A stretch of 40,202 bases of DNA from a virus (taxonomy: Duplodnaviria; Heunggongvirae; Uroviricota; Caudoviricetes), in the IMG/VR virus record IMGVR_UViG_3300013121_000035, positions 1 through 40,202 of that record; one strand, given 5' to 3'. Both the position numbers and the translations under genes were made by a program. The notes under the pieces were generated by a model that saw only the letters and a list, made by a program, of their open reading frames with translations, was not told the DNA's origin and searched no databases. Below are positions 1-14,056 of the stretch, piece after piece (positions within the stretch are counted from its first letter, which is position 1; the number at the start of each line of letters is the position of its first letter).

Positions 1-163
1 ATTCGACCGGATCGGTGCAGGGGGGGCGGGTCACCATGCCTGACGGCTGGAGTGCGACCGCGAGACCGGGTGCGTGTGCGCGTGGCTCGCTGCAGTCGAC
101 GTTGCGGTCCGCCGTGACCGCCCCCCCTGCCCTGCGCCCAACCTCGCCTGCGGGCCGCTGCCG

Positions 164-403
164 ATGACCCAGCCAGCGCGCGTTGACGTCGACGTCCGCG
201 TCCACGACATCACCATCCGTGCGGTCGCCGCCGGCGTGCGCGTCACGCTGCACGGCAGCCTGCCCGGCCGCCAAACCCACCTGCTCACCGTCCGCGCCGA
301 CCTGGACCTTGCCGTTGCCGACGAGCTGATCCAAGCCGTCACCGGCGCGGTCGCCCACGCCCGCACCCGGCGGCCACCACCGCCCACACCGCACGCCAGA
401 TAG
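164..403 (+). CDS. hypothetical protein
   Basis: C-ending codon bias from ATG 164 (MTQPARVDVDVRVHDITIRAVAAG); no family recognised. Confidence 0.5.
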   Translation: MTQPARVDVDVRVHDITIRAVAAGVRVTLHGSLPGRQTHLLTVRADLDLAVADELIQAVTGAVAHARTRRPPPPTPHAR

Positions 404-405
404 CC

Positions 406-427
406 GTCACCCACGAGTCACCCACGA
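406..427 (+). repeat. perfect 11-bp tandem duplication GTCACCCACGA x2
   Basis: 406-416 and 417-427 identical, directly before the RBS of ATG 440. Confidence 0.85.
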
Positions 428-439
428 AAGGACCACAAC

Positions 440-747
440 ATGGCCGCAAGCGCGCTTGACCTTCGCCACGACAGCGAATTCCACACCCCGGTGCGAACGC
501 TTTGGCGCTGTTTTCCGCCACCTTGGCAAAGCACGGCCGCGGCCACGCGCCCAACGCGACGCTGGACGACGCGTTCACCCAACTCGCCGCCGAGGTCCTG
601 CGCCACCGCCACGACCACCAGCGCATGGCAAGCGCCGCTGAGGATCGCACCCGCCGCCAGGCGCTACGAGCCGCCGAGCCCCGACCCGCCGCTGCTCGCA
701 CCTGGTCGCCCCGCCAGGTCCCCCAGCCGGCCACCACGCGCTCCTGA
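440..747 (+). CDS. hypothetical protein with apparent frame switch near 500
   Basis: RBS GAAAGGA before ATG 440, but coding-like codon bias continues in the frame of ORF 502-747. Confidence 0.35.
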
Positions 748-770
748 CGCGCGCTCTCCTGACGCGCGCT
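741..770 (+). repeat. perfect 15-bp tandem duplication CTCCTGACGCGCGCT x2
   Basis: 741-755 and 756-770 identical. Confidence 0.85.
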
Positions 771-854
771 GAGACTCAAGCTCGCGTCCACCGCAACGCT
801 CGTTACCACCGCACAGACTGCATCGCACGGACTTCATGCACGGGGGGCTGATTC

Positions 855-1070
855 ATGCTGCGACGACGCTGGACTCTTACCCTCAGCAAGGGTTGCAAGC
901 CCCTGCTGGAACTCCAGTCGCGCAGGTACTGGACGCGTGAAGCCGCTGAGCGCGCCGCCGAAGAACTCAACGCCGAGACGGTTGTCACGTTCGGGTTCTG
1001 CGGGCACGACCTGCCCCACTACGAACCCAGACGACGTGCTGATTTGGAACGAACGAGACGATCGGAGTAG
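855..1070 (+). CDS. hypothetical protein
   Basis: G-rich RBS-like run then ATG; 71 aa. Confidence 0.45.
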   Translation: MLRRRWTLTLSKGCKPLLELQSRRYWTREAAERAAEELNAETVVTFGFCGHDLPHYEPRRRADLERTRRSE

Positions 1071-1123
1071 GCTGCGCAGCCGTTGCGTCATCAGGCAGTC
1101 GTCGCCAGGGGGGGCGAACGCGA

Positions 1124-1483
1124 TTGTCTCTGCCCACCGATACCGCACCGCCCGCTGCGCCAATGCCGGCGCCCGAGTCACCCGAACGCGGCCAGCCCGC
1201 CACGCCCCGGGTGTACTACATCGACGCGCTCGACGACCCGCCAGACACGGTCAAAGACCCGCGGGTCCTGCGCGAGCTGCGCCTGCGCCGCGCACACGCC
1301 CAGCAGCGTGACCGGCACACCGGCGCGTGGACCGTCGCCGCCGAGCTCGGCCGCGGCAGCGCCGCCCTGCTGCTCATCCTCGCCGGGCTCAACGCCAGCT
1401 CCAAGGGCCGCACCACCCTGGCCAGCGTGGAATTCCTCGTCGCGCTCGCCATCGTCGTCGCCAGCCGCCACCTCCTCGACTAG
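1124..1483 (+). CDS. putative membrane protein
   Basis: Two C-terminal hydrophobic segments (SAALLLILAGL, VEFLVALAIVVAS); start uncertain (TTG 1124 or ATG 1163). Confidence 0.55.
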   Translation: MSLPTDTAPPAAPMPAPESPERGQPATPRVYYIDALDDPPDTVKDPRVLRELRLRRAHAQQRDRHTGAWTVAAELGRGSAALLLILAGLNASSKGRTTLASVEFLVALAIVVASRHLLD

Positions 1484-1578
1484 AAAGCCTGCCCATGCTC
1501 ACCCCCCACACCGACCAGCGTGCACCCCCCACCACCCCCGCACCGCTGGACGCCTCACACGAAAGGATCACCCCGTCA

Positions 1579-1800
1579 ATGGCAGTGACGTGGATCACCT
1601 CCATCCTGATCGCCATCTTCGCTGGCTACCTGCTCGGCCATCACCGCGGCAGCCGCTGGATGAAGACCGCCGACGCCGTCGCCGACCTGCTCCGCGAAAT
1701 GGTCTGGCAGCAGCCTGGACGCAAGCGCGCCCGCCGGCTCATCCCCAGAGCCAACGAGGCGCTGCGCCAGTACGAACGCCTGCACGTCGGCGGGGACTGA
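1579..1800 (+). CDS. small membrane protein
   Basis: RBS GAAAGGA at 1561; N-terminal TM segment MAVTWITSILIAIFAGYLLG. Confidence 0.6.
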   Translation: MAVTWITSILIAIFAGYLLGHHRGSRWMKTADAVADLLREMVWQQPGRKRARRLIPRANEALRQYERLHVGGD

Positions 1801-1968
1801 CCCCAGCGCCCGCCACGCGGCCCCGGTGCGTGCCGCCGCCGGGGCTGCCACACCATCGCAGACGATCACACAAAACGGCCGTTGCGCCCGTATCCGCTCG
1901 CGACGCGATCCGCCATTTTCGGTGAAGGCGCCAATTCCCTCCCTCCCCGGAAATGGCAAGGTGGATTC

Positions 1969-2184
1969 GTGGCTCAGCAGACCCCGCCGCCCAACGACCC
2001 CGACGACGACTACACCCTGACCTCCTCAGAGGTCGCCGGCATGTTCCGCGTCAGCCCCAAAACCGTGACCCGCTGGGCCAAGCTCGGCCTGCTGCCCTAC
2101 CGGCGCACCCTCGGCGGGCACCGCCGCTTCTCCGAACGCCGCGTCCGCGAGGAGCTCGACAAGCGGGGGAGCGCCACATGGTGA
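1969..2184 (+). CDS. bldC: BldC-family (MerR-like winged HTH) transcriptional regulator
   Basis: LTSSEVAGMFRVSPKTVTRWAKLGLLPYRRTLGGHRRF closely matches Streptomyces BldC (EVATMFRVDPKTVTRWAKAG...RTLGGHRRY); GTG 1969 with AAGGTGG RBS. Confidence 0.85.
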   Translation: MAQQTPPPNDPDDDYTLTSSEVAGMFRVSPKTVTRWAKLGLLPYRRTLGGHRRFSERRVREELDKRGSATW

Positions 2185-2453
2185 CCCTCGACGACCTCGA
2201 TGTGGCCGGCCCCGAAGCGCCCAGCGTCTTCACCGCGTTCAGCCAGGTCCTGGACGACACCCACCCTGCGCTGGTCACCCCACAGCTCGTCGCCGTCCTC
2301 CAACGCGCACTGGACGGCGTCGGCTACCGCCTGCCGCTGGACATCGTGCTGCGCAGCGTCCCCGCACGCGTGGCCGCCGAGCAGGCCATCAACCGGCTCC
2401 GCGCCCGCCTGGGCTACCAATTGTGGGCTGCTGGTGCCGACACCACCATGTGA
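2178..2453 (+). CDS. hypothetical protein
   Basis: ATG 2178 overlaps bldC stop; good codon bias. Confidence 0.6.
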   Translation: MVTLDDLDVAGPEAPSVFTAFSQVLDDTHPALVTPQLVAVLQRALDGVGYRLPLDIVLRSVPARVAAEQAINRLRARLGYQLWAAGADTTM

Positions 2454-2479
2454 GAACCGCACGCCGAGGAGGAGCTCGC

Positions 2480-2635
2480 ATGGCAGAACACGAGCGGCGT
2501 GGCCGTCGGCGTGACGCCGACCAGCCCGCCAACAGCATGAGCTACTGGGACCAGGTCGCCCGCGACCAGGCCGAGCGTGCCGCCCAGACGGCCGAGCGGA
2601 CCGCCGAGAAGGCCAAGCAGCCCACCGGCGAATAG
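2480..2635 (+). CDS. small hypothetical protein
   Basis: Strong RBS GAGGAGGAG; 51 aa charged helix. Confidence 0.6.
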   Translation: MAEHERRGRRRDADQPANSMSYWDQVARDQAERAAQTAERTAEKAKQPTGE

Positions 2636-2737
2636 CATCCCAGCAGCTCGCGGTGCGCAACTGGCACCACGCCGGATTCGACGCGCCTGCGACGTTCGTG
2701 TAGCGTCGCCGCCGGTCGTCGGTGCTCGGTGACCATC

Positions 2738-2774
2738 GACGCCCCGGTGCCTGGCCCCCCAGCGCCGGGGCGTC
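2738..2774. terminator. hairpin between convergent genes
   Basis: GACGCCCCGGTGC / GCGCCGGGGCGTC 13-bp stem with one G-U pair; no U tract. Confidence 0.55.
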
Positions 2775-2776
2775 AC

Positions 2777-3121
2777 TCATCCCCGCCGCTTCTCCGGTTT
2801 GGCGTCCGGCTTGCCGGCCGAGGACCTGCCCGGCTTGCCCGGCGGCTTGCCCGCCGCGCTCGCCGGCGCCCCGGCAGCGTCCGCGTCGGCCTGTGCGCGT
2901 TTGGCCTCCACCTGCTCCAACCGTGCCGCCACCTGATCCGCCTGCGCCGCCAACCGCGCCAACGCGTCGGTCGCATCGGTCAACCGCCCGGTCGCGGTCG
3001 CCAGCTCCTGCTGCGCCGCGGCCAGCCGCTCACCCGCAGTCGTCAACGCCGCCTGCGCCGCGCGGCTGGGACGCGGGGAACGCCGCCGGTCGAAAAACCA
3101 CGGCCACGCTGCCACCATCAT
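2777..3121 (-). CDS. coiled-coil protein, possible lysis accessory
   Basis: RBS GAAGGGAG; N-terminal WPWFF then Ala-rich heptads; overlaps upstream gene by 4 nt. Confidence 0.65.
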   Translation of the reverse strand: MMVAAWPWFFDRRRSPRPSRAAQAALTTAGERLAAAQQELATATGRLTDATDALARLAAQADQVAARLEQVEAKRAQADADAAGAPASAAGKPPGKPGRSSAGKPDAKPEKRRG

Positions 3122-3429
3122 CGGCTCCCTTCGCGGGTGGCCCGCCGCGCGGCGCGGCGGGCCAACTCCGCATCGGCGCGCTCCAGCAACGCCACCGTCG
3201 TCTTGTGCTGCTCGATCGCCGCGTCCGCCCGCACGGTCTCCTTGCGCAACGCCTCACGGGTTTCCTCGTGGGCGGCCTGCTCCTTCTCAAACGCCTGCTT
3301 CCACCCGTCCACGTCACGGCGCAACTGCTCACCGACCCGCTTGGGGTCAAGGAACCCGGTCATGATCAGCAGCGCCAGCACCCCGCCAGCGCCCCAGGTC
3401 AACACCACCTGCATGATCGAGCCGTCCAC
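3118..3429 (-). CDS. single-TM coiled-coil protein, holin-like or lysis accessory
   Basis: TM segment VLTWGAGGVLALLIMTGFL followed by charged coiled coil; GTG 3429 (or ATG 3414). Confidence 0.6.
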   Translation of the reverse strand: MDGSIMQVVLTWGAGGVLALLIMTGFLDPKRVGEQLRRDVDGWKQAFEKEQAAHEETREALRKETVRADAAIEQHKTTVALLERADAELARRAARRATREGSR

Positions 3430-3490
3430 ACGCACCTGCCGTCGTAGGCCGGCCGGGCATCGCACCAGCCGCACGGTTGCTCTCCAGGTG

Positions 3491-3514
3491 ATCTCGGCGC
3501 GTCCGCCATGCCAA
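3491..3514 (-). promoter_or_regulatory. putative sigma28/WhiG-like promoter TTGG-N12-GCCGAGAT
   Basis: Motif match in divergent intergenic region, upstream of the 3429 gene. Confidence 0.55.
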
Positions 3515-3538
3515 TTCGTCGGACTCCACCGCCGATGA
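3515..3538 (+). promoter_or_regulatory. putative sigma28/WhiG-like promoter TTCG-N12-GCCGATGA
   Basis: Motif match upstream of the 3597 gene. Confidence 0.6.
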
Positions 3539-3541
3539 CCA

Positions 3542-3561
3542 ACAACAACAGACAACAACAG
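3542..3561 (+). repeat. perfect 10-bp tandem repeat ACAACAACAG x2
   Basis: 3542-3551 and 3552-3561 identical, over the predicted transcription start. Confidence 0.8.
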
Positions 3562-3596
3562 AGCGCACCCGCTCGTCGACGATGAAAGGTGGAGAC

Positions 3597-3845
3597 ATGG
3601 CCGAACCCGACACCAACGGCGGCGAGCAGCAAGGGCTGGCCGCCCAGCTCGGCGACCGCCCCATCAGCGGCGTCTCACCATCCCCAGCCGTCGCACGCCC
3701 CGACCAGCCGGTCTTCCCCCCGCCGATCTTCGCGCCCATCGCCGAAGTCGTCGTGGACGAAAGCAAGGCCCCAGCACCCCAGGCGCCGGCCGACCAGCCA
3801 GCCGAGGAGCCACCCGCGCCAGTCCAAGCACGCCGCCGGCGCTGA
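3597..3845 (+). CDS. Pro/Ala-rich hypothetical protein
   Basis: RBS AAAGGTGGAG before ATG 3597. Confidence 0.6.
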   Translation: MAEPDTNGGEQQGLAAQLGDRPISGVSPSPAVARPDQPVFPPPIFAPIAEVVVDESKAPAPQAPADQPAEEPPAPVQARRRR

Positions 3846-3868
3846 ACCGCCCAGAGCGAGGAGGAACC

Positions 3869-4306
3869 ATGACCGACGCCAACATCACCGACAACGAGCC
3901 CACCAAGGGCGGCGACCCGATCCGTGCGCAGTTCGGCGACCTGGACGAGACCATCGAGCTCGTCCGGTTCGTCTTCAGCGACCCCGCCGCCGGCACCGGC
4001 TCCTACCAGAGCCGCGTCAACCACGCGCTCGTCGAGCGGTTCCCCGGCCACGCCGCCAACATCTTCGAGCTGTTCCAGGCCGTGGACAACAACGACGACG
4101 CCGCCAAGCGCCGCGCCGTCGCCCAGGTCGTCAACGCAATGGCCGACGACCCCAGCACCACCGGCGACGACAAGGAACACGACCGCAACTGGGGGCGGCT
4201 GGCCCGCCAGAACCCCTCCGCGGCGATCGCGCTGCTCGGCCTGGGCATCTCAGCGCGCATCAACCACGTCGAAGGCGTCAAGTGGGCGCCCGCTGACGAC
4301 ATCTGA
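3869..4306 (+). CDS. hypothetical protein
   Basis: RBS GAGGAGGA; strong codon bias; 145 aa; no family recognised. Confidence 0.75.
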   Translation: MTDANITDNEPTKGGDPIRAQFGDLDETIELVRFVFSDPAAGTGSYQSRVNHALVERFPGHAANIFELFQAVDNNDDAAKRRAVAQVVNAMADDPSTTGDDKEHDRNWGRLARQNPSAAIALLGLGISARINHVEGVKWAPADDI

Positions 4307-4396
4307 TCTTCGCGGCATCCGCCGCACCACCGCGGCCCTGCCGCACCCACCGCGGCCCCGTCTGCTCGGCGGGGCCGCTCGCATCTGCCTGAAGCG

Positions 4397-6013
4397 ATGA
4401 GCATCCGCCGCGCCCTGCCCCTGCCCCAACCCGGCGACGCCGCCCCGCTCGGCCCGGTCGTCGCCGCGGTCGTGCTGTGCCCACTGCTCGTCCTCGGCGC
4501 GTTCAGCCTGCCGCTCAACACCGCGCTCCAAGCCGCCCTGCCCTACCTGGTCGCGTTCGCCTGCGGCGGGGGCCTGCTGCTCGCCGCCTGCCTGCACTGG
4601 ATCGCGCGCACCATCGACGACGACCAGCTGGACTTCCTCGGCGTCGTCTACCTCCTGGCCGCCCTCGGGGTGCTGCTGCGCGGTGTCGTCCTGCCGCAAA
4701 CCAGCGCCATCGGCAACGCCACCATCATCGGCTCCACTGACGCGTCGGCGCTGCTGACCCTGCTGTGGCACGCGCTGATCCCCATCGGCGCCCTGCTCGT
4801 CCTCGGCCGCCACGCCGCCCGCTACGGCTGGGCGCCAACCCTCACCCTCGGGGTGTTCACCGGCGCGGTCATGATCGCCATGCTCCCCCTGGGCGGCCCC
4901 GACCTCGCCGACCCCAACGGCGTCAAGACCACCCTCGGGGTCACCCTGGCAGTCAGCGTCGGCGCCCTCAGCGCCCTCGCCGCCATCCTGTGGGTCCGCG
5001 CCGGCAACCGCCGCCCCTACGGTCCCGACCCGTGGATCGCCGCCAACCTCATCCTGGTCAGCGCCGGGGTCTTGCTGTGGGCCATCGCCGGCCCCCGCTA
5101 CAGCCCCCTGTGGTGGGCGTCGCAATGCTGCGACGCCCTGGCGTTCATCACCGCCGGCGCCGGCCAGCTCCAAGCCGTCGCCCGCTTCCAGACCGCGATG
5201 AACAACTACGTCGCCAGCCAGCAAGTCCTGCGCCGCGCCCAACCCCGGCCCAGCATCGAACTCAGCGACGCCAGCAGCCAGACCAGCCGCGACGCGATCG
5301 CCGCGCTGATCACCCACCCCGATCAGATCACCATGCTCGTCCAGCCCATCGTCGACCTCACCAGCGGCCGGGTCGCCGGCGCCGAAACCCTCGCCCGCTT
5401 CACCCCCGACCCCACCCAGCCGCCAACCGCCTGGTTCGACGCCGCCCACGCTGCCGGGCTGGCCAGCGACCTGGAACTGCTCTGCGCCCGCGCCGCCCTG
5501 ACCCACCTGGGCGCCCTACCCAACGACCTGTACCTGTCGATCAACCTCAGCCCCACCACCCTGGCCCAGATGCACTCCATCGCCGACACCTTCACCGTCA
5601 CCGGCCGCGACTGGCGCCGCATCGTCGTCGAAGTCACCGAACAGCAGCTCATCGACGACTTCGCCCACCTCGGCGACCTGTTCACCCCCGCCCGCGACCT
5701 CGGCGTCCGCCTGGCCATCGACGACCTCGGCAGCGGCCAAGCCGGCCTGCAGCACGTGCTGTACCTGCGACCCGAAGTCATCAAGATCGACCAGTCCATC
5801 GTCCAAGCGGTCGACACCGACCCCTACTGCCGCGCGCTGATCGCCAGCCTCGTCGCGTTCACCAGCGCGATCGGCGCCAGCCTCGTCGCCGAAGGTGTCG
5901 AGACCGCCGCGCAACACCGCACCCTGGTCAGCCTCGGCGTCAGCTACGGCCAAGGGTTCCGGCTCGGGCGCCCCATGCGCGTCGAAGACCTGCGCGTCCG
6001 CCTGCAACCCTGA
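4397..6013 (+). CDS. membrane-bound EAL-domain c-di-GMP phosphodiesterase (MASE4-like N-terminus)
   Basis: Multi-TM N-terminus (LLWHALIP, RYSPLWWASQ); QPIVDL, GAETLARF, SINLSP, EVTE, DDLGSG, IKID, AEGVET, GQGF: catalytic E/N/E/DD/K/E/Q retained. Confidence 0.92.
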   Translation: MSIRRALPLPQPGDAAPLGPVVAAVVLCPLLVLGAFSLPLNTALQAALPYLVAFACGGGLLLAACLHWIARTIDDDQLDFLGVVYLLAALGVLLRGVVLPQTSAIGNATIIGSTDASALLTLLWHALIPIGALLVLGRHAARYGWAPTLTLGVFTGAVMIAMLPLGGPDLADPNGVKTTLGVTLAVSVGALSALAAILWVRAGNRRPYGPDPWIAANLILVSAGVLLWAIAGPRYSPLWWASQCCDALAFITAGAGQLQAVARFQTAMNNYVASQQVLRRAQPRPSIELSDASSQTSRDAIAALITHPDQITMLVQPIVDLTSGRVAGAETLARFTPDPTQPPTAWFDAAHAAGLASDLELLCARAALTHLGALPNDLYLSINLSPTTLAQMHSIADTFTVTGRDWRRIVVEVTEQQLIDDFAHLGDLFTPARDLGVRLAIDDLGSGQAGLQHVLYLRPEVIKIDQSIVQAVDTDPYCRALIASLVAFTSAIGASLVAEGVETAAQHRTLVSLGVSYGQGFRLGRPMRVEDLRVRLQP

Positions 6014-6029
6014 CCGCCAAGGAGCCCAC

Positions 6030-6371
6030 ATGGCCTACATCGCGCTTGCGCTCATCCAAGTGCTCATCGCCGCCGCCTACGTCGTCATCGGCGTCAGCGT
6101 GCTACCCCGCGTGCGCTTTGGCGCCGTGGCCGCCATGCTCGCGCTCGGCTTCTTCCTGCTGTGCGCCGGCACCCACTTCGACCTCGCACGCCACACCGCC
6201 CAACGCAACGACCCCGACCTCATCGCCCCCCACATGTGGGCGTTGCACGTCAGCCAAGCCGTGATCGACTGGGCGTTCATCTTCGCGGTCCGCCGCTGGA
6301 AGATCGAGATCCGCCGCCGCCCCCCCGACGAGCGGCGCTGGCTGCGGTTCCTCGACGACGACCACGGCTAG
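6030..6371 (+). CDS. stand-alone 3-TM protein resembling the ETR1-type ethylene/copper-binding domain
   Basis: RBS AAGGAG; LIAAAYVVI, GFFLLCAGTH (CxxxH), ALHVSQAVI align with ETR1 FIAIAYFSI, AFIVLCGATH, TAKVLTAVV. Confidence 0.7.
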   Translation: MAYIALALIQVLIAAAYVVIGVSVLPRVRFGAVAAMLALGFFLLCAGTHFDLARHTAQRNDPDLIAPHMWALHVSQAVIDWAFIFAVRRWKIEIRRRPPDERRWLRFLDDDHG

Positions 6372-7381
6372 CTGACCTGCCATCCTGTCCGGCCGCGCTT
6401 GGCCGCGTACATCGCCCGGTCCGCCGCGGCCAGCAGCGCCGCTGGTGTGGCCCGCTGTGCCGAGGACAGCGCGACCCCCACACTCATCGACACCCGCACC
6501 TCCACCCCCGCCCGCACCGGCCGCTCCAACCGGGCCATCAACCGGCGAACCACCACCTGCGCGTGCTCCGGCGAGCTGTTCTCCAGCAGCATCGCGAACT
6601 CGTCGCCCCCCAGCCGCGCGGCCGAGTCCGATTCGCGCAACCCCACCCGCAACCGGCGGGCGACCTCCACCAGCACCCGGTCGCCGACCTGATGGCCGAA
6701 CGTGTCATTGATCCGCTTGAAGTCATCCACGTCGGCGTACAGCAACGCCACCGTCGCCCCGGTCCGCCGCGCGCGTGCCAGCGCGTGCTCCAGCCGGTCC
6801 TCGAACAGCGTGCGGGCCAGCAGCCCCGTCAACTGGTCAGTCAGCAGCGTCTCGTTGAACCGCCACGAGATCAGGTACGGCAAGTTGGTCAACCCCACGA
6901 ACGTCACCTGCGCGATCACCACGATCAGCGGCTGCTGCAACGCCCCATGCGCGTACAGCGTCGCCGGCGCGATGAGCGCCGCGCCGGCCAGGAACACCGC
7001 GTACGCGCCGATCGCCACCAGGCACGGCAGCCACGCCTGATACAACGTGACCATCCCGATCGTGGCGAAGAAGTGCAGATGCCACAGCCCACCACCACCG
7101 AGCACCACCAGCAGCGCGCTGGAGCCCACCAACGCCGTCGAGCCCAACGCCATCCGCGCCCGGCGTGACTGCGCCCAATTCGCGCCCGCCGCGAGCGCCG
7201 CCAGCGCCAACGCCTCAGCCACGCCCAGCCGTGCCCGCCCCGTCACCACCCCGACCGCGATCAGCAGGGCCACGTGCGCCCAGATCACCATCACGATCCC
7301 ACGGTGTCGTGCGAGCAGCGCGCTGGACGGCAACATCTGCCCGCGCGGCACAATCCTGCGCACGCGTGCCCGCCAAGACAC
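6368..7381 (-). CDS. membrane-bound diguanylate cyclase (GGDEF)
   Basis: RBS AGGAG; TM N-terminus; DQLTGL, DVDDFKRINDTFGHQVGD, I-site RESD, RLGGDEF (GGDEF at 6596-6610). Confidence 0.95.
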   Translation of the reverse strand: MSWRARVRRIVPRGQMLPSSALLARHRGIVMVIWAHVALLIAVGVVTGRARLGVAEALALAALAAGANWAQSRRARMALGSTALVGSSALLVVLGGGGLWHLHFFATIGMVTLYQAWLPCLVAIGAYAVFLAGAALIAPATLYAHGALQQPLIVVIAQVTFVGLTNLPYLISWRFNETLLTDQLTGLLARTLFEDRLEHALARARRTGATVALLYADVDDFKRINDTFGHQVGDRVLVEVARRLRVGLRESDSAARLGGDEFAMLLENSSPEHAQVVVRRLMARLERPVRAGVEVRVSMSVGVALSSAQRATPAALLAAADRAMYAAKRGRTGWQVS

Positions 7382-7480
7382 CGATCCGACTCCTCAACAG
7401 TGAGCTGGGAATACTATCGACCTGACACTTTTCGCATTCGATCGGCACAACGGCCACGCGGCACGGCGGGGGAGGGCGCA

Positions 7481-7594
7481 ATGCCAGCAGCGAAATGCCC
7501 ACCACACGCCAAACGGCTGCGTCGCACCGCACGCACCTGGGAATGCCCACGCTGCGGGGAGGTCCTCGCTACCCAGGAACAGCTGCGCATCTGA
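7481..7594 (+). CDS. small Zn-ribbon-like protein
   Basis: RBS GGAGGG; C-x2-H ... WECPRCG; 37 aa. Confidence 0.4.
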   Translation: MPAAKCPPHAKRLRRTARTWECPRCGEVLATQEQLRI

Positions 7595-7653
7595 CCCGCG
7601 CCAGCACTGGCAACGGCCGTTATCATTGCGCTCGGCGACTGGGGGGGAGCCGC

Positions 7654-7854
7654 ATGAACCGCACGCGCCTGCGCGACTACGACCCGCACGTCCACATCGA
7701 CCTGTCCTGCCCGCACTGCGGCGCCAGCGGTGAGCTGTGCGGCTACCTGTCCATCGTCGGGCGGGTCGTCGGCCACGTCAGGCGCATCCTGTGCGCTCAC
7801 CCCGAGGACCTCGACGTGCGCTGCCGATCCGACGAGCCGTTCAGCCTCAACTAA
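7654..7854 (+). CDS. small Cys-rich hypothetical protein
   Basis: GGGGGAG RBS; CPHCG motif. Confidence 0.5.
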   Translation: MNRTRLRDYDPHVHIDLSCPHCGASGELCGYLSIVGRVVGHVRRILCAHPEDLDVRCRSDEPFSLN

Positions 7855-7857
7855 CCA

Positions 7858-7881
7858 CTCGACAACCACCCCGGCCGAGCG
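7858..7881 (+). promoter_or_regulatory. putative sigma28/WhiG-like promoter CTCG-N12-GCCGAGCG
   Basis: Motif match, intergenic, upstream of lexA-like gene. Confidence 0.45.
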
Positions 7882-7914
7882 CTACCCTGACTTAGCTAAT
7901 TTGAGTTCAGACGG

Positions 7915-8196
7915 GTGATGGGAGCGACGATGCCAGCCGGGAGCCGCCAAGCCATGCTCGCGGCCGCCGCCGACCGGCGCGAGCAGATGCTCGACTACAT
8001 CGACACCTACCACCGCCACCACGGCTTCTCCCCATCCATCCCCGAGATCAGCCAGCACTTCAACATCTCCACCGGCGTCACCCGCCACCACCTGCTGCAC
8101 CTCGAACGCGAAGGACGGCTGCGCCGCACCCCCGGCGTCCACCGCTCCTTCCAAGTCATCCACACGCCTGGGGGGGCACATGCACCGCGACGATGA
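7915..8196 (+). CDS. LexA-type N-terminal DNA-binding domain protein without peptidase domain
   Basis: RREQMLDYIDTYHRHHGFSPSIPEISQHF...HHLLHLEREGRLRRTPGVHRSF follows LexA wHTH pattern; start may be 7918 or 7930. Confidence 0.75.
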   Translation: MMGATMPAGSRQAMLAAAADRREQMLDYIDTYHRHHGFSPSIPEISQHFNISTGVTRHHLLHLEREGRLRRTPGVHRSFQVIHTPGGAHAPRR

Positions 8197-8911
8197 CCGG
8201 CCACCACTGCCACCACTCACCGACGCGCAACGCGCCGCCGTCGACCGCAGCATGGCCGTCGCCCTGGTCGAGCAGCTCGCCGCCGCCGAAGCATTCGGCA
8301 ACCAGACCACACCAGCCGACCAGGCCGCATTCGCCGACGCGCGCGCCGCGACCGGCGTCACCGGCCAGGAAATCGTCACCCCCACCGACCGCAACGGCAA
8401 GTACGGCCGCCCCCGCCGCGTGCTCAAAACCATCTTCCGCGACCCACCCATGCGTGTGTTCGCCGAGCAGCCCTCCAACCTCGCCTACGGCGAGATCCGC
8501 CTGCGGCCCGGCCACGTCAAGATGTCGCTGGACACCTGGCAAACCGCCTACGCCGACCAGCACGTCTTCGAGACGCTCAAACGCGAAGTCGAGCAGTACC
8601 GGGGGGGCACCACCGTGCGCAGGCAGATCGTCGACGCGGGCGACTACGGCCGTCAACGCCAAGCAGAACTCGACCGGCTCCGAGCCACCATGCAGGTCCC
8701 ACCCGGCGACCTGGAAGACCTCCGCGCCCAAGTCGACAACCTCATCATCCAGCTCGGCACCGCCGGGGACGTCATGACCGAGCGTCACGTCGCCATGTTC
8801 ACCGAACGCTGGCTGGTCGCCAACCAACGCCTGGACCAGGTCGCCGCCCAACTCGACGAGCTGCGCAGCCACCTGCAGCTCGTCGCCCGCAAGCTCGGCC
8901 CCGGCGCCTGA
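8180..8911 (+). CDS. hypothetical protein with C-terminal coiled coil
   Basis: 243 aa, strong codon bias, overlapping neighbours. Confidence 0.7.
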   Translation: MHRDDDRPPLPPLTDAQRAAVDRSMAVALVEQLAAAEAFGNQTTPADQAAFADARAATGVTGQEIVTPTDRNGKYGRPRRVLKTIFRDPPMRVFAEQPSNLAYGEIRLRPGHVKMSLDTWQTAYADQHVFETLKREVEQYRGGTTVRRQIVDAGDYGRQRQAELDRLRATMQVPPGDLEDLRAQVDNLIIQLGTAGDVMTERHVAMFTERWLVANQRLDQVAAQLDELRSHLQLVARKLGPGA

Positions 8912-9170: not shown

Positions 9171-9530
9171 ATGACCGGCCCCAGCGCTGCGAGCCTGCTG
9201 CGCGCCCACGTGTCCGAGCGAGACTTCCAGCAGCAGGTCACCGACCTCGCCAGCCTCCACGGCTGGCTCATCTACCACACCCACGACTCCCGCCGAAGCC
9301 AACCCGGCTTCCCCGACCTCGTCCTGGTCCGCGAACGGGTCATCTTCGCCGAGCTGAAAACCGAGCGCGGCAAGCTCACCCGCGCCCAGCGCATCTGGCT
9401 CGCCGCCCTCGCCGGCGCCAGCGTCGAAGCCTACTGCTGGCGGCCCAGCGACACCGACACCATCGCGGCCATCCTCGCCCGCAAAACCCCACCGAAATCC
9501 CAGGATGCGTCCACATCTGACATGAGGTAA
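9171..9530 (+). CDS. VRR-Nuc domain nuclease
   Basis: SERDFQQQV, GFPDLVLV, FAELKT, GKLTRAQRIW. Confidence 0.85.
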   Translation: MTGPSAASLLRAHVSERDFQQQVTDLASLHGWLIYHTHDSRRSQPGFPDLVLVRERVIFAELKTERGKLTRAQRIWLAALAGASVEAYCWRPSDTDTIAAILARKTPPKSQDASTSDMR

Positions 9531-11055: not shown

Positions 11056-11462
11056 ACGCCCTCATCGAACCGGCCGTAGCGATCGCCCTGCTCGCCTGCG
11101 TCGTCGGTGCGCTGTGCGCCGCGTTCATCCTCCACGTCGCCATCCTCCACAACCACCCCCCCTCGCCGCTGGCAACGGCCGTCAGCAGAGTCGCGCGCAC
11201 CGTCGCCCGCCAGGTCGCCGGCGACACCAGCGAGATCCCCGTCGCCGAGGCCGACACCATCGAACAGCCCTCGGTCAAAGGCGAGCTCGTCGCCGACACC
11301 GAAGGGCGCTGGTTCACCATCCACGAAGCCGACCTGCGCCACGCGCTGGCTGCTACGTTCGAGGAGCACCTGCATCCCGACAACGCGCTGCGCCAACTCA
11401 CCAAGCACGCCCTCATCCACCACCAGCGCCCCGCCAAGCGCCGGAAAGGAGGCACCCGATGA
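11052..11462 (+). CDS. hypothetical membrane-anchored protein
   Basis: N-terminal hydrophobic helix; overlaps neighbours by 4 nt. Confidence 0.6.
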   Translation: MNALIEPAVAIALLACVVGALCAAFILHVAILHNHPPSPLATAVSRVARTVARQVAGDTSEIPVAEADTIEQPSVKGELVADTEGRWFTIHEADLRHALAATFEEHLHPDNALRQLTKHALIHHQRPAKRRKGGTR

Positions 11463-14056
11463 GCGTCACCGTCACCCTGGAGGAGGAGGAGCTGTACCTC
11501 GCCGCCCTCTTGGACGACCCCAGCGGCCTGGACCTCGCCGAGTTCTGCTGGCTGGACGAAGAAGCCGACGACGGGTGCTTTCGCGCCTGGGACTACCAGT
11601 GGGCCTGGTGGCGCAACGACGACCCCTACCAGATCGACCAGGCCGGCCGGTCACTGGGCAAGAGCGTGGGCATTACCATGCGCGCGTTCGCCTTCCCCTT
11701 CAAAGCGCCCGGCCAGGAGATGCTCGTCACCGCGCCGGAGCTCAACCACCTGCGCCCCCTCACCGACCAGATCGAACACCGGCTCACCACCACCCGCCTC
11801 ACTCGCGAGCTGCTCCCCGCCGTCAAAGGCATGGGCATCGCCAGGCAGCCGCACTTCCAGGTCCGTTTCACGAACAATGCTCGCATCATTACCAGACTTC
11901 CCAATAAGGACGGTAAGGGAGTCAAGGGGTCGATGGCCGCCGGGGCCATCGTGCTCACTCGGAACGGCCTGAAACCGATTGAGGATGTCGTACCTGGTGA
12001 CGAGGTTCTCACCCACATGAACCGCTGGCGGCGGGTACTGGACAACATCCGCTCCGACGCTGATGTCGACCTCATCGACGTCGCTGGCGGCGGCAACCGC
12101 AGCCTAGTCATGTCCTGGAACCACCGGATGTTCGGTCGACGCAACCGCAACCCGCAGCGCACCCGGCGGCTTTCGCCGATCAACTGGGTCATTGCCGACG
12201 ACCCAGAACTGGGCGACCGCTGGTACTTCGGCTCGCCGACCACCTTCCCCAGCGAGCCGCTGCCAGCAACGCCCGTCGCCGACATCGAGGCGCTGCTTGC
12301 ACTCGCTGGCGCCTATGTCGCCGACGGCAACCAGGGCGTCAACCGGATCGCGCTCACCGACGACGTCGATGAGGTACCACGTCTGCTTGCCCTCGCTGAA
12401 GCGGTGGGTTGCACCGCGCACGCCTACGACAAGGCCGTGGGTTCCCGGGCGCGCACAGTCGAGATCTACGGCAAGGCTGTCGCCAACTGGTTGTTGGAGC
12501 ACTTCGGCCAGTACGCCGCGGGTAAGCGGCTGCCGGTCTGGCTGCTCGGTGCGGAGGAGCGCTACCGCAAGGCGTTCTTATACACCTATCTCGCAGGGGA
12601 CGGTCACTGGAGTCCAGTCAAGCGGCGCTGGGAACTGTCGACCGCCTCCAAGCCACTCGCCGTTGGTCTCCGCCTGCTCGGCCAGAGCCTCGGTTACCAG
12701 GGCAGTCTCTCGTGGACTGACCCGAAGCCCAACCAGGTGAGCCCCGCACCGCAACGTTCCTGGCGCGTACAACTCACCGATCACGGCCACGCCCAACTGC
12801 TCGATGGCATCTTGTGGACTAAGGTCCGTGCAGCCACCGAGAGCGGTCGCGGTGTGGTCTACAGCATGGTTGTTGAAGGTGACGAGTCCTACATCGCGGA
12901 CGGACTGATCAGCCATAACCAACACCCCATTCATCTCGAAATGGACGAAGCCCAGGACTACCCTCTCGCTGGCTGGGTGGAGCTGATCGAAACGCTCAAG
13001 CGCGGCAGCAAAGGGTTCACGTGGCGCTGCCACGGCGTCTCCCGCGGGGTGCGCGACAAGTTCTACGAGCTCACCCAGGAATCCTCCGGGTGGACCGTCC
13101 ACCGGCTCACCGCCGTGCACCGGCCGACCTGGGACGACGCGGAGCGCCAAGCCAAGATCCGCGAGTACGGCGGCAGTCGCGACAACCCCGACTACAAGCG
13201 CAACATCTTCGGCGAGCACGGTGATGCGACCAACCCGCTGTTCGTTCTTGCCCGCCTGATGGCGATCGTGCGCCAGGACGCCGAGTACAACGACGACATC
13301 TACGCCTGCCGCAAGATCAGCTACGAGCTGGTCGCCAACGCCGGCACCCCCATCCAGACGTTCCTGGACCTGCCCGGCAGCCATCTCGCCGGCTACAGCG
13401 GCTACTACGGCGGGATGGACGTCGGGTTCACCGCCGACCCCTCCGAGATCCTGGTGTTCGGCGAGCAGGTGAAGACCGGCAAGCTGCGGCTGCTGACCCG
13501 CATCCAGCTCGCCCGCGTCCACGCCGCCGACCAGCGGCGCGTCATCACCGCCCTGTTCGACTTCTACGGCGCCAAGCTGCGCCGGTTCGCGATGGACAAG
13601 ACCGGGCTGGGCCTGCCGATCTGGCAGGACATGCTCACCGAGCCGATCAGCGGCGCCAACGACCGGGTCATCGGCTACAACTTCTCCGGCCTGTATCCCG
13701 TCGAGGTCGAAGACCGCCCGCTGAAACCCGGCGAGAAGCCCGCGGACCTGGTCATCAAGAAGAACATCAAGGACTGGTCGTCTGACCAGCTGCGCCACTG
13801 GGTTGACCAGCGTGTCCTGGAGCTCCCGTTCGACCGGGAGCTGCTCAGCGAATGGCAGGGGCAGAGCTACTCGGTCGCCCCGCAGGCCGGCAACCCGTAT
13901 GGGCGGCGCAGCTACTCCGCCGGCTCCTACCACACCCTGGACGCGGGACGGATGTTCGCCGCCGCCAAGGGCTTGGAAGCGATCGAGGCGATGCTCGCCA
14001 AGCCGGTGGCCACCGAAGGCCCCGTCCTGGACGTGTTCGTCGGCGCCGGGTACTGA
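11459..14056 (+). CDS. terL: terminase large subunit, intein-containing
   Basis: RBS AAAGGAGG; Walker A QAGRSLGKS, Walker B IHLEMDE, nuclease motifs GGMDVG, MDKTGLG, HTLDA; 865 aa, 535 aa without intein. Confidence 0.92.
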   Translation: MSVTVTLEEEELYLAALLDDPSGLDLAEFCWLDEEADDGCFRAWDYQWAWWRNDDPYQIDQAGRSLGKSVGITMRAFAFPFKAPGQEMLVTAPELNHLRPLTDQIEHRLTTTRLTRELLPAVKGMGIARQPHFQVRFTNNARIITRLPNKDGKGVKGSMAAGAIVLTRNGLKPIEDVVPGDEVLTHMNRWRRVLDNIRSDADVDLIDVAGGGNRSLVMSWNHRMFGRRNRNPQRTRRLSPINWVIADDPELGDRWYFGSPTTFPSEPLPATPVADIEALLALAGAYVADGNQGVNRIALTDDVDEVPRLLALAEAVGCTAHAYDKAVGSRARTVEIYGKAVANWLLEHFGQYAAGKRLPVWLLGAEERYRKAFLYTYLAGDGHWSPVKRRWELSTASKPLAVGLRLLGQSLGYQGSLSWTDPKPNQVSPAPQRSWRVQLTDHGHAQLLDGILWTKVRAATESGRGVVYSMVVEGDESYIADGLISHNQHPIHLEMDEAQDYPLAGWVELIETLKRGSKGFTWRCHGVSRGVRDKFYELTQESSGWTVHRLTAVHRPTWDDAERQAKIREYGGSRDNPDYKRNIFGEHGDATNPLFVLARLMAIVRQDAEYNDDIYACRKISYELVANAGTPIQTFLDLPGSHLAGYSGYYGGMDVGFTADPSEILVFGEQVKTGKLRLLTRIQLARVHAADQRRVITALFDFYGAKLRRFAMDKTGLGLPIWQDMLTEPISGANDRVIGYNFSGLYPVEVEDRPLKPGEKPADLVIKKNIKDWSSDQLRHWVDQRVLELPFDRELLSEWQGQSYSVAPQAGNPYGRRSYSAGSYHTLDAGRMFAAAKGLEAIEAMLAKPVATEGPVLDVFVGAGY
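11930..12919 (+). mobile_element. intein with LAGLIDADG homing endonuclease (330 aa)
   Basis: SMAAGAIVLTRNGLKPIEDVVPGDEVLTH, block B SWNH, AGAYVADG, YLAGDG, VYSMVVEGDESYIADGLISHN; codon usage differs from flanks. Confidence 0.92.

Follow-up and report, generated by a model that had tools for sequence, protein, structure and literature searches.

A putative membrane c-di-GMP cassette with an EAL and a GGDEF protein and a sensor-type protein in a tailed-phage genome

Many bacteria use cyclic di-GMP (c-di-GMP) to choose between a motile and a sessile lifestyle, and in actinomycetes the messenger decides whether cells grow vegetatively or sporulate. Mobile elements can carry their own enzymes for this messenger, as the SXT/R391 conjugative elements do with DgcK and DgcL, which are single soluble diguanylate cyclases. 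For phages, peptides that bind the host cyclase YfiN have been described (PMC8085984), and these peptides were the only studied case of phage interference with c-di-GMP in the literature that we searched. Development of actinomycetes is under c-di-GMP control via BldD and RsiG/sigma-WhiG (PMC4151990, PMC7005675). Phage accessory genes of c-di-GMP families are already catalogued, and PHROGs contains several GGDEF and EAL families labelled ‘unknown function’, but the searchable open literature held no experimental study of a phage with both its own cyclase and its own phosphodiesterase. Here we describe a stretch of 40,202 nucleotides (the window), which forms the first 40.2 kb of the 104,202-bp IMG/VR virus record IMGVR_UViG_3300013121_000035. 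Three adjacent genes at positions 4397-7381 of the window encode a membrane-anchored EAL protein, a small protein with three transmembrane (TM) helices and a membrane-anchored GGDEF protein. We consider it likely that this cassette is accessory cargo that re-tunes host c-di-GMP by means of two antagonistic, signal-gated membrane enzymes.

The three genes fill this interval. The EAL gene (4397..6013) and the gene of the 3-TM protein (6030..6371) are on the plus strand and the GGDEF gene (6368..7381) is on the minus strand. Overall GC content is about 68-69% and third-position GC content (GC3) is 0.8-0.95 in real genes; GC3 is 0.89-0.94 in all three cassette frames, which are therefore regarded as coding. 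The 3-TM gene begins 17 nt past the EAL stop codon, behind a strong Shine-Dalgarno sequence that was read directly from the DNA (AAGGAG, 6019..6024, plus strand, 5 nt before the ATG). This spacing and the strong ribosome binding site indicate that it is coupled to the EAL gene. At its other end it runs into the GGDEF gene without any intergenic space. The convergent stop codons share the palindrome CTAG at 6368..6371, with TAG at 6369-6371 on the plus strand and TAG at 6368-6370 on the minus strand, and a terminator scan found no terminator between the two genes. An initial annotation of this locus, made from the sequence alone, had described a three-gene membrane c-di-GMP cassette with overlapping stop codons, and the coordinates, the strands, the Pfam assignments to EAL and GGDEF and the shared CTAG all agree with that description. 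Judged from gene layout only, a leftward promoter of the GGDEF gene would lie within the intergenic region between its start and the next rightward open reading frame (ORF; 7382..7494), where a scan for the sigma-70 consensus gave no match. Phage promoters under c-di-GMP control through a WhiG/FliA-type -10 box were also considered and rejected, as the window contains GCCGATA a single time, with 1.78 occurrences expected.

The EAL protein has 538 aa and is a predicted c-di-GMP phosphodiesterase. Its EAL domain covers residues 307-526 (Pfam E 6.6e-45, 153.8 bits; gathering threshold 31.3 for PF00563), and a search of the genome placed the catalytic domain at 5315..5974 on the plus strand with 156.2 bits. 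Residues were checked in an alignment with 120 homologues (121 sequences in all) and against the structure 2r6o, which we take to be the active TBD1265. E330, R334, N383, E412, E415, D442, D443, K463, E499 and Q519 are kept; each is identical in at least 119 of the 121 sequences and in 2r6o. We take their equivalents in RocR to be E175, R179, N233, E265, E268, D295, D296, K316, E352 and Q372. The motifs ETLAR and DDLGSGQAG are present, and the earlier statement that the EAL domain keeps its catalytic residues is thus borne out. Hydropathy indicates an N-terminal membrane domain (4397..5290, plus strand) with about 7-8 hydrophobic helices between residues 18 and 260. Pfam gave no match to this part of the protein (residues 1-301) at E <= 10, including MASE4 (PF17158). 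Comparison with MASE4 clusters (Atlas features 0.88; structural TM-scores 0.67/0.86) and with five MASE4-annotated homologues (hhalign 96.4%, E 1.4e-9, 252 columns) provides a lead only, and we use the term MASE4-like in that sense. No close EAL relative was found among GenBank phages, where the weak matches were mostly fragmentary or bacterial records, and none was found in IMG/VR. Cellular relatives of the TM-EAL protein (P0005, P0042) lie in ordinary chromosomal neighbourhoods without partner genes.

The GGDEF protein has 337 aa and is a predicted diguanylate cyclase with an I-site. It matches Pfam GGDEF with E 3.2e-45 and 154.2 bits (gathering threshold 23.8 for PF00990), and in the genome search the catalytic domain was located at 6392..6841 on the minus strand (156.5 bits). 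We place the start at the GTG at 7381, since homology to P0158, the nearest relative, can be followed from residue 5 onwards; the 307-aa version of an alternative gene caller, with its start at 7291, is less likely. Alignment with 120 homologues (again 121 sequences), supplemented with the structures of TpbB and 3icl, showed that the metal-binding D217 and D219 as well as K222, N225, D226, D234, K328 and the signature G258-G-D-E-F262 are kept, and that the signature, D217/D219, N225 and D234 are invariant or nearly so. We take D327 of PleD to be the metal-binding residue, and the guanine-binding N335 and D344 of PleD to be the equivalents of N225 and D234. The I-site is kept as R249-E-S-D252, which is followed by S-A-A-R-L and then by GGDEF, five residues apart. 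The GGDEF signature, the DxDxFKxxND motif and the RxxD I-site that had been noted before are thus all present (GGDEF, DVDDFKRIND and RESD).

The N-terminal membrane domain of the cyclase (6860..7381, minus strand) was recognized by hydropathy; about 5-6 hydrophobic helices precede the GGDEF domain, and the protein ends right after the latter. It belongs to no Pfam family and carries the in-membrane motif H-x-H-F-F...T-L-Y-Q-x-W-L-P, which is invariant between the phage protein and P0158 and is also present in 273 confirmed relatives from soil metagenomes. The paired histidines of this motif suggest a metal or haem site. In 43 of 68 full-length relatives an EAL domain follows in the same frame, which makes them TM-GGDEF-EAL composites, and a GGEEF-only clade has about 18 members. 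For the phage cyclase, descent from such a composite by loss of its EAL domain was considered and is unsupported, since the protein falls in a polytomy on a long branch. The membrane domains of the EAL and GGDEF proteins were also compared and are unrelated to each other. As a separate observation, the membrane domain at 6860-7381 (minus strand) defines a widespread family of soil bacteria (loci L248-L327), most members of which are TM-GGDEF-EAL proteins.

The gene between the two enzymes encodes a stand-alone 3-TM protein of 113 aa with conserved Cys and His residues. Its AlphaFold model has a predicted local distance difference test score (pLDDT) of 92 and helices at residues 2-27, 32-58 and 67-90. 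The family is rare: an exhaustive HMMER search of 1.8 billion representatives returned only 36 relatives. These include stand-alone proteins with lengths of 105-160 aa as well as proteins in which the domain is N-terminal to HisKA/HATPase, PAS-SpoIIE or PAS-GAF-GGDEF-HD modules; the closest relative, at 47% identity, is the N-terminus of a histidine kinase. Y17, F41, T48, H49, H68, Q76 and F83 are invariant in the family, and C45, H55 and H73 are nearly so. When the family profile was run on 401 sampled Actinomycetota genomes, five matched, and in two of these the domain is the N-terminal part of a GGDEF-EAL protein. At the level of sequence, these fusions are a domain-fusion link between the 3-TM module and c-di-GMP enzymes. 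A pattern scan of GTDB genomes gave no match to the family and no relatives were found in IMG/VR; the contigs that carry the closest relatives of the 3-TM protein and of the cyclase are too short to inform on context. Fold searches with the model placed rice ethylene receptor 4 on top in AFDB Swiss-Prot, at a non-discriminating E of 1.8, and returned nothing telling from AFDB clusters and Atlas. A predicted complex of the EAL membrane domain (residues 1-300) with the 3-TM protein scored 0.00 against a mark of 0.32, which is informative neither way.

Profile comparisons point to a remote relationship of the 3-TM protein with the ethylene-binding domain ETR1_N (PF25487; gathering threshold 27 bits). 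The phage protein itself does not match this model at E <= 10, and four of 17 family members match it weakly (best E 0.048). Two of the five genomic matches, ORFs in the genomes G073 and G299, match the 3-TM profile with E 1e-5 and 3e-7 and score 27.2 and 25.5 bits with PF25487, that is, around the cut-off of 27. Alignment of the family by hhalign with two actinobacterial ETR1_N proteins of about 100 bits gave 88% and E 3e-6, and 96.9% and E 1.9e-10 once intermediates were added, although TM-helix composition inflates such scores. The alignment to bona fide ETR1_N proteins covers helices 1-2 only, and in its register Y17 falls on the Tyr of the ethylene-binding site, with C45 and H49 on its Cys and His (of CGGTH). 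The Tyr aligned with Y17 is presumably Tyr32 in ETR1 numbering, and His73 on helix 3, which lies outside the aligned helices 1-2, may be the counterpart of ETR1 Lys91. In ETR1, Cys65 and His69 on helix 2 are the Cu(I) ligands (PMC10266040). Gln10 of the phage protein aligns to ETR1 Asp25 on helix 1, the partner of Lys91 on helix 3, where the consensus of the 3-TM family is Asn. Of 1221 ETR1_N domains, 93.6% have Asp and 3.7% have Asn at the Asp25 position, and Arabidopsis ETR1 with D25Q shows no saturable ethylene binding, minimal residual copper binding and ethylene insensitivity (PMC10266040). Because Gln10 stands at the Asp25 position, we file the protein as a putative, remote sensor-type domain of the ETR1_N superfamily rather than as an ethylene receptor. 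The suggestion that the cassette includes a possible sensor agrees with both the family fusions and these profile comparisons. Beside this family, Actinomycetota have proteins of about 205 aa (L152:1111-1725 and L153:1207-1827, both on the minus strand, and L240-L247) in which an ETR1_N-like three-helix domain with C-A-V-x-H is followed by a C-terminal coiled coil. They score at or just below the ETR1_N cut-off and bridge the ethylene-binding domain and the 3-TM family.

The cassette is located in the genome of a tailed phage. To its right are genes for a LexA-type winged-helix protein, a VRR-NUC nuclease, the large terminase, a portal candidate, tail-fibre-like proteins and a tape-measure protein of 2096 aa; the terminase and tape-measure genes were named via PHROGs. 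A search based on the terminase yielded 55 related IMG/VR viral contigs, whereas GenBank phages gave a single distant match to the portal. The portal candidate is common to 50 of these loci, the small upstream genes o9698 and o10525 to 49 and 22, and the winged-helix gene to 14, so the record combines tailed-phage hallmark genes with synteny to other viral contigs. To the left of the cassette the window contains small ORFs only, with a single Pfam match (MerR/HTH_17, a helix-turn-helix (HTH) protein). Pfam found no housekeeping genes in the flanks, where all matches are of HTH types or VRR-NUC. Both the location inside a phage genome and the statement that the flanks are without host genes are therefore retained from the initial annotation. 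The sole integrase-type gene found is a large serine recombinase at genome positions 70629-72173 (minus strand; PF00239 with 77.6 bits; a frame of 514-523 aa), in the middle of the record and outside the window, which suggests a temperate phage with integration of the phiC31/Bxb1 type. No tyrosine integrase was found. With the recombinase in mid-contig, the record does not follow prophage order, and its left end does not mark a junction between attachment site and host. The best cellular homologues come from Kineosporiales, Mycobacteriales, Nocardioidaceae and Solirubrobacterales, which indicates that the host is probably an actinobacterium, and the carrier is probably a siphovirus-like, temperate phage of an uncultured high-GC soil actinobacterium.

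The arrangement was reproduced in independent Logan assemblies from other sequencing runs. L002 (10.3 kb) is 98.8% identical over window positions 1-8703 and spans both cassette junctions, and L003 (1 kb, from a third run) is 99.5% identical over 5444-6494, across the joints of the EAL, 3-TM and GGDEF genes. Misassembly, which had been named as one outcome that would undo the finding, is thereby largely excluded. On the left, L002 outruns the 104-kb record by 1583 bp (L002:1-1583). This extension, with small ORFs and a gene for a GerE/LuxR-type HTH protein, has no match elsewhere in the record. The record must therefore be incomplete and not closed, despite a CheckV estimate of 100%. Counting the extension, the 9.4 kb leftward of the cassette are densely filled with ORFs of 51-145 aa, which have Pfam matches to GerE and MerR/HTH_17 only. 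Between the window and L002 the three cassette genes differ by 18 synonymous and 10 non-synonymous changes, a pooled ratio of non-synonymous to synonymous rates (pN/pS) of about 0.21. The 3-TM gene has no non-synonymous and three synonymous differences, and pN/pS is 0.16 for the GGDEF gene and 0.44 for the EAL gene, the product of which is 99% identical in the two copies. No catalytic residue is among the differences. Such mostly synonymous divergence is consistent with purifying selection.

None of the 55 related viral contigs carries an EAL, GGDEF or 3-TM gene within 10 kb of its terminase gene, and the cassette is thus lineage-specific cargo. In IMG/VR, at least 186 GGDEF stretches were confirmed by a pattern scan, and the best 80 of them (loci L157-L236) were examined. 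Among these best 80, 38 are ordinary GGDEF-EAL fusions and none has the membrane domains of this phage or the 3-TM protein. For as many as 50 of them a contig end is no more than 5 kb away, and many originate from prophage calls in isolate genomes; a sizeable share of ‘viral’ GGDEF genes may therefore be host flank rather than phage cargo.

If both enzymes are active, the phosphodiesterase with its MASE4-like membrane domain and the cyclase with its I-site would act as a sink and a source, under phage control, for the c-di-GMP pool of the host. Both enzymes would be gated, each through the membrane domain that it carries. The 3-TM protein, co-translated with the phosphodiesterase, would most likely modulate one of the enzymes in trans within the membrane, because members of its family are N-terminal input domains of kinases, phosphatases and GGDEF-EAL proteins. 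Since the cyclase gene opposes the EAL/3-TM unit without spacer or terminator, expression of the two activities probably falls into different stages. The altered c-di-GMP level could shift surface polymers, motility or development of the actinobacterial host, to the benefit of the phage or the lysogen. With no PilZ receptor found in the record and no c-di-GMP riboswitch in the window, read-out would proceed via host effectors.

Several observations weigh against this proposal, and they have to be considered together with other explanations. The arrangement of the three genes was found in 0 of the 55 related viral contigs, in 0 of the 80 GGDEF-bearing viral contigs and in 0 of 80 metagenome relatives of the cyclase, and it is also missing among the cellular relatives of the TM-EAL protein. 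Because the triad recurs nowhere searched, there is no comparative support for a joint function. The 104-kb record has no PilZ receptor, and an Rfam search, which covered the 40-kb window, gave no match and so no c-di-GMP riboswitch there. The view of the initial annotation that the locus is a complete signalling unit was in this respect overstated: the three parts belong to different families, and the link between them consists of the local layout and of domain fusions elsewhere. The triad was apparently assembled from separate sources, or its source is unsampled. In addition, both enzymes have one rare substitution that could weaken catalysis. In loop 6 the EAL protein has Q448 where 115 of the 121 sequences have Y or F, and Gln is seen only in the phage protein and its near-identical copy. 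The loop reads D-L-G-S-G-Q-A-G against the canonical D-F-G-T/A-G-Y-S-S; its Gly residues and the Asp are kept, and its L, S, A and G are found in actinobacterial relatives. In the cyclase, the turn D-Q-L-T-G-L-L-A-R has A189 at the position of the Asn of LTGLxNR, which is present in 113 of 121 sequences, and no branch of the family tree is longer than that of this protein (2.44 substitutions per site). These features would fit non-catalytic sensors or scaffolds, in which one or both domains bind c-di-GMP or GTP but do not convert it and serve as receptors or as inhibitors of host signalling proteins, and non-catalytic EAL and GGDEF proteins are well known. The 3-TM protein could in that case be a decoy that pairs with host sensors of the same N-terminal domain; with a histidine kinase N-terminus as its closest relative, heteromerisation with a host sensor is conceivable. 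However, all established catalytic, metal-binding and substrate-binding residues are kept in both domains, the retained I-site is relevant only to an active cyclase, and stand-alone 3-TM forms also occur on contigs that are not phage-like. Overall, a non-catalytic role seems possible but rather unlikely. Neither Q448 nor A189 is among the residues with an established catalytic role, and both are reasons for caution on activity. Of the earlier claim that both enzymes are apparently active, we retain the conservation of the catalytic residues, which makes activity plausible, and add these two substitutions as a reservation.

The cassette could also be recently captured passenger DNA that has no role in the phage and is being lost. 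It is absent from all 55 relatives and its parts have separate origins; it lies within the most GC-rich 8 kb of the record, with GC slightly raised, and its tetranucleotide distance exceeds that of 31 of 34 windows. The estimate of selection is based on 28 differences only. Still, three intact frames in two diverged copies, with mostly synonymous differences, a retained strong ribosome binding site and tight packing that includes overlapping stops are not what is expected of decaying DNA, and we regard this explanation as unlikely, slightly more so than loss of catalysis. A position 4.4 kb from the contig end raises the further question whether the left 7.9 kb are bacterial DNA, joined to the phage by assembly or included through a wrong prophage boundary. 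The first gene shared with related phages begins to the right of the cassette, at 7915, the high proportion of IMG/VR GGDEF loci near contig ends (50 of 80) is what host flanks would produce, and the record is not closed, with the leftward extension of L002 unmatched in the rest of the record. Against this, the junctions recur in two other assemblies, the leftward 9.4 kb have small ORFs and no housekeeping gene, and the recombinase lies in mid-contig with no tyrosine integrase found; no boundary of the attachment-site type was seen near 7.4-7.9 kb, although no systematic search for one was made. A host origin of the left end is thus improbable. The least probable explanation, to which we give very little weight, is an anti-defence device in which the EAL protein destroys a cyclic-dinucleotide immune alarm or the cyclase makes a decoy. 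Phages that degrade or sequester immune cyclic nucleotides have been described (PMC12657218, PMC13640721). The cassette proteins, however, are polytopic membrane proteins with sensor domains. To our knowledge, anti-CBASS proteins (against the cyclic-oligonucleotide-based anti-phage signalling system) are small and soluble, and EAL domains act specifically on c-di-GMP, a messenger that mainly signals lifestyle.

A more specific version of the proposed re-tuning of host c-di-GMP can be formulated, which we consider speculative and rather improbable, namely a toggle, coupled to the phage life cycle, through which an environmental cue would act on host development. In this version a dedicated leftward promoter would drive the cyclase gene, for instance during lysogeny, and rightward transcription of neighbouring phage genes would take in the phosphodiesterase and the sensor. 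Head-on collision at the overlapping stop codons could then allow effective expression of one unit at a time. The host would have high c-di-GMP in one state (vegetative, with BldD/RsiG engaged) and low c-di-GMP in the other, and the ETR1_N-like Cys/His protein would add a gate that depends on copper, redox or a small gas. If true, this would be a phage-encoded second-messenger switch. With or without such a toggle, the cassette as accessory cargo for host c-di-GMP offers a compact, clonable system for asking whether a phage can re-programme the second-messenger level of its host on cue, which signal a Cys/His membrane domain of this type reads, and whether it can act in trans.

The surroundings of the cassette contain further features. 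Immediately in front of the EAL gene and in the same orientation, an ORF of 145 aa (3869..4306, plus strand; GC3 0.95) possibly belongs to the same transcription unit. It has no match in Pfam or PHROGs and no relative in IMG/VR, and differs from its copy in L002 by one non-synonymous and two synonymous changes. Further to the left, the MerR/HTH_17 protein has 100 aa (1882-2184; Pfam E 1e-10); it had been labelled BldC-like before, and Pfam alone has no power to separate this type from excisionase-type HTH proteins. On the other side, the LexA-type winged-helix protein (7915..8196, plus strand; Pfam LexA_DNA_bind E 1e-9; phrog_3502 and phrog_362) is the first gene to the right that is shared with related phages. 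In 14 of the 55 related contigs a homologue precedes the terminase gene by about 3 kb, and the protein may be a conserved regulator of the late operon. The VRR-NUC nuclease, assigned by Pfam, is encoded at 9171-9530, upstream of the terminase gene. The large terminase ORF itself (11114-14056) has 980 aa. Query residues from about 116 to 979 span only about 1.6 kb in most of the 55 relatives and 2.6-3.6 kb in a few loci (L007, L008, L010, L028 and L057). Because the match spans are shorter in most relatives, the terminase of this record seems to carry an insertion of about 330 aa, in line with an earlier suggestion of an intein.

Placed beside described proteins, the three cassette members each combine a known module with an unusual setting. 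The EAL protein shares its domain with the canonical phosphodiesterases (2r6o, PA3825-EAL 4y9o and RocR; phmmer E 4.6e-24 to 2r6o), including the complete catalytic, metal-binding and general-base set. Unlike them, it is encoded by a phage, has EAL as its only output on a MASE4-like membrane domain of 300 aa and carries Gln for Tyr/Phe in loop 6. The cyclase shares GGDEF with PleD (1w25), WspR (3bre) and TpbB/YfiN (7a7e) (E 1.7e-30 to TpbB) and likewise has the A-site, the metal Asp, the guanine-contacting Asn/Asp and the RxxD I-site, but it differs in a membrane domain without Pfam family and in the Ala for Asn in LTGLxNR. With the ethylene-binding domain of ETR1, SynEtr1 and AzoEtr1 the small protein has in common three TM helices, a helix-2 Cys-x3-His and a helix-1 Tyr, and AzoEtr1 shows this domain as the N-terminal input domain of a kinase, as in members of the 3-TM family (PMC11819568). 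In contrast to ETR1_N proteins, the phage protein falls below the Pfam model, has Gln10 for Asp25 and is without an output domain. The same three modules occur in cellular 3TM-GGDEF-EAL fusions of Actinomycetota (G195 and G398), in which the 3-TM part keeps Y, FF, C-x3-H, H and Q. There they form one polypeptide, without extra membrane domains, instead of three genes. Identity to the phage proteins is 30-35% for 3-TM, 45-47% for GGDEF and 28-31% for EAL, and with values this low the fusions are not the direct source of the cassette. The literature searched contained no description of two opposing membrane proteins that are accompanied by a stand-alone ETR1_N-like sensor and whose phage context is well supported. 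The closest functional parallels are the phage peptides that bind YfiN and the cyclases DgcK and DgcL of SXT/R391, with which a mobile element likewise alters host c-di-GMP for its own ends. In those cases the agent is a small peptide or a single soluble cyclase, whereas the phage described here encodes a predicted opposing pair of enzymes with membrane sensor domains.

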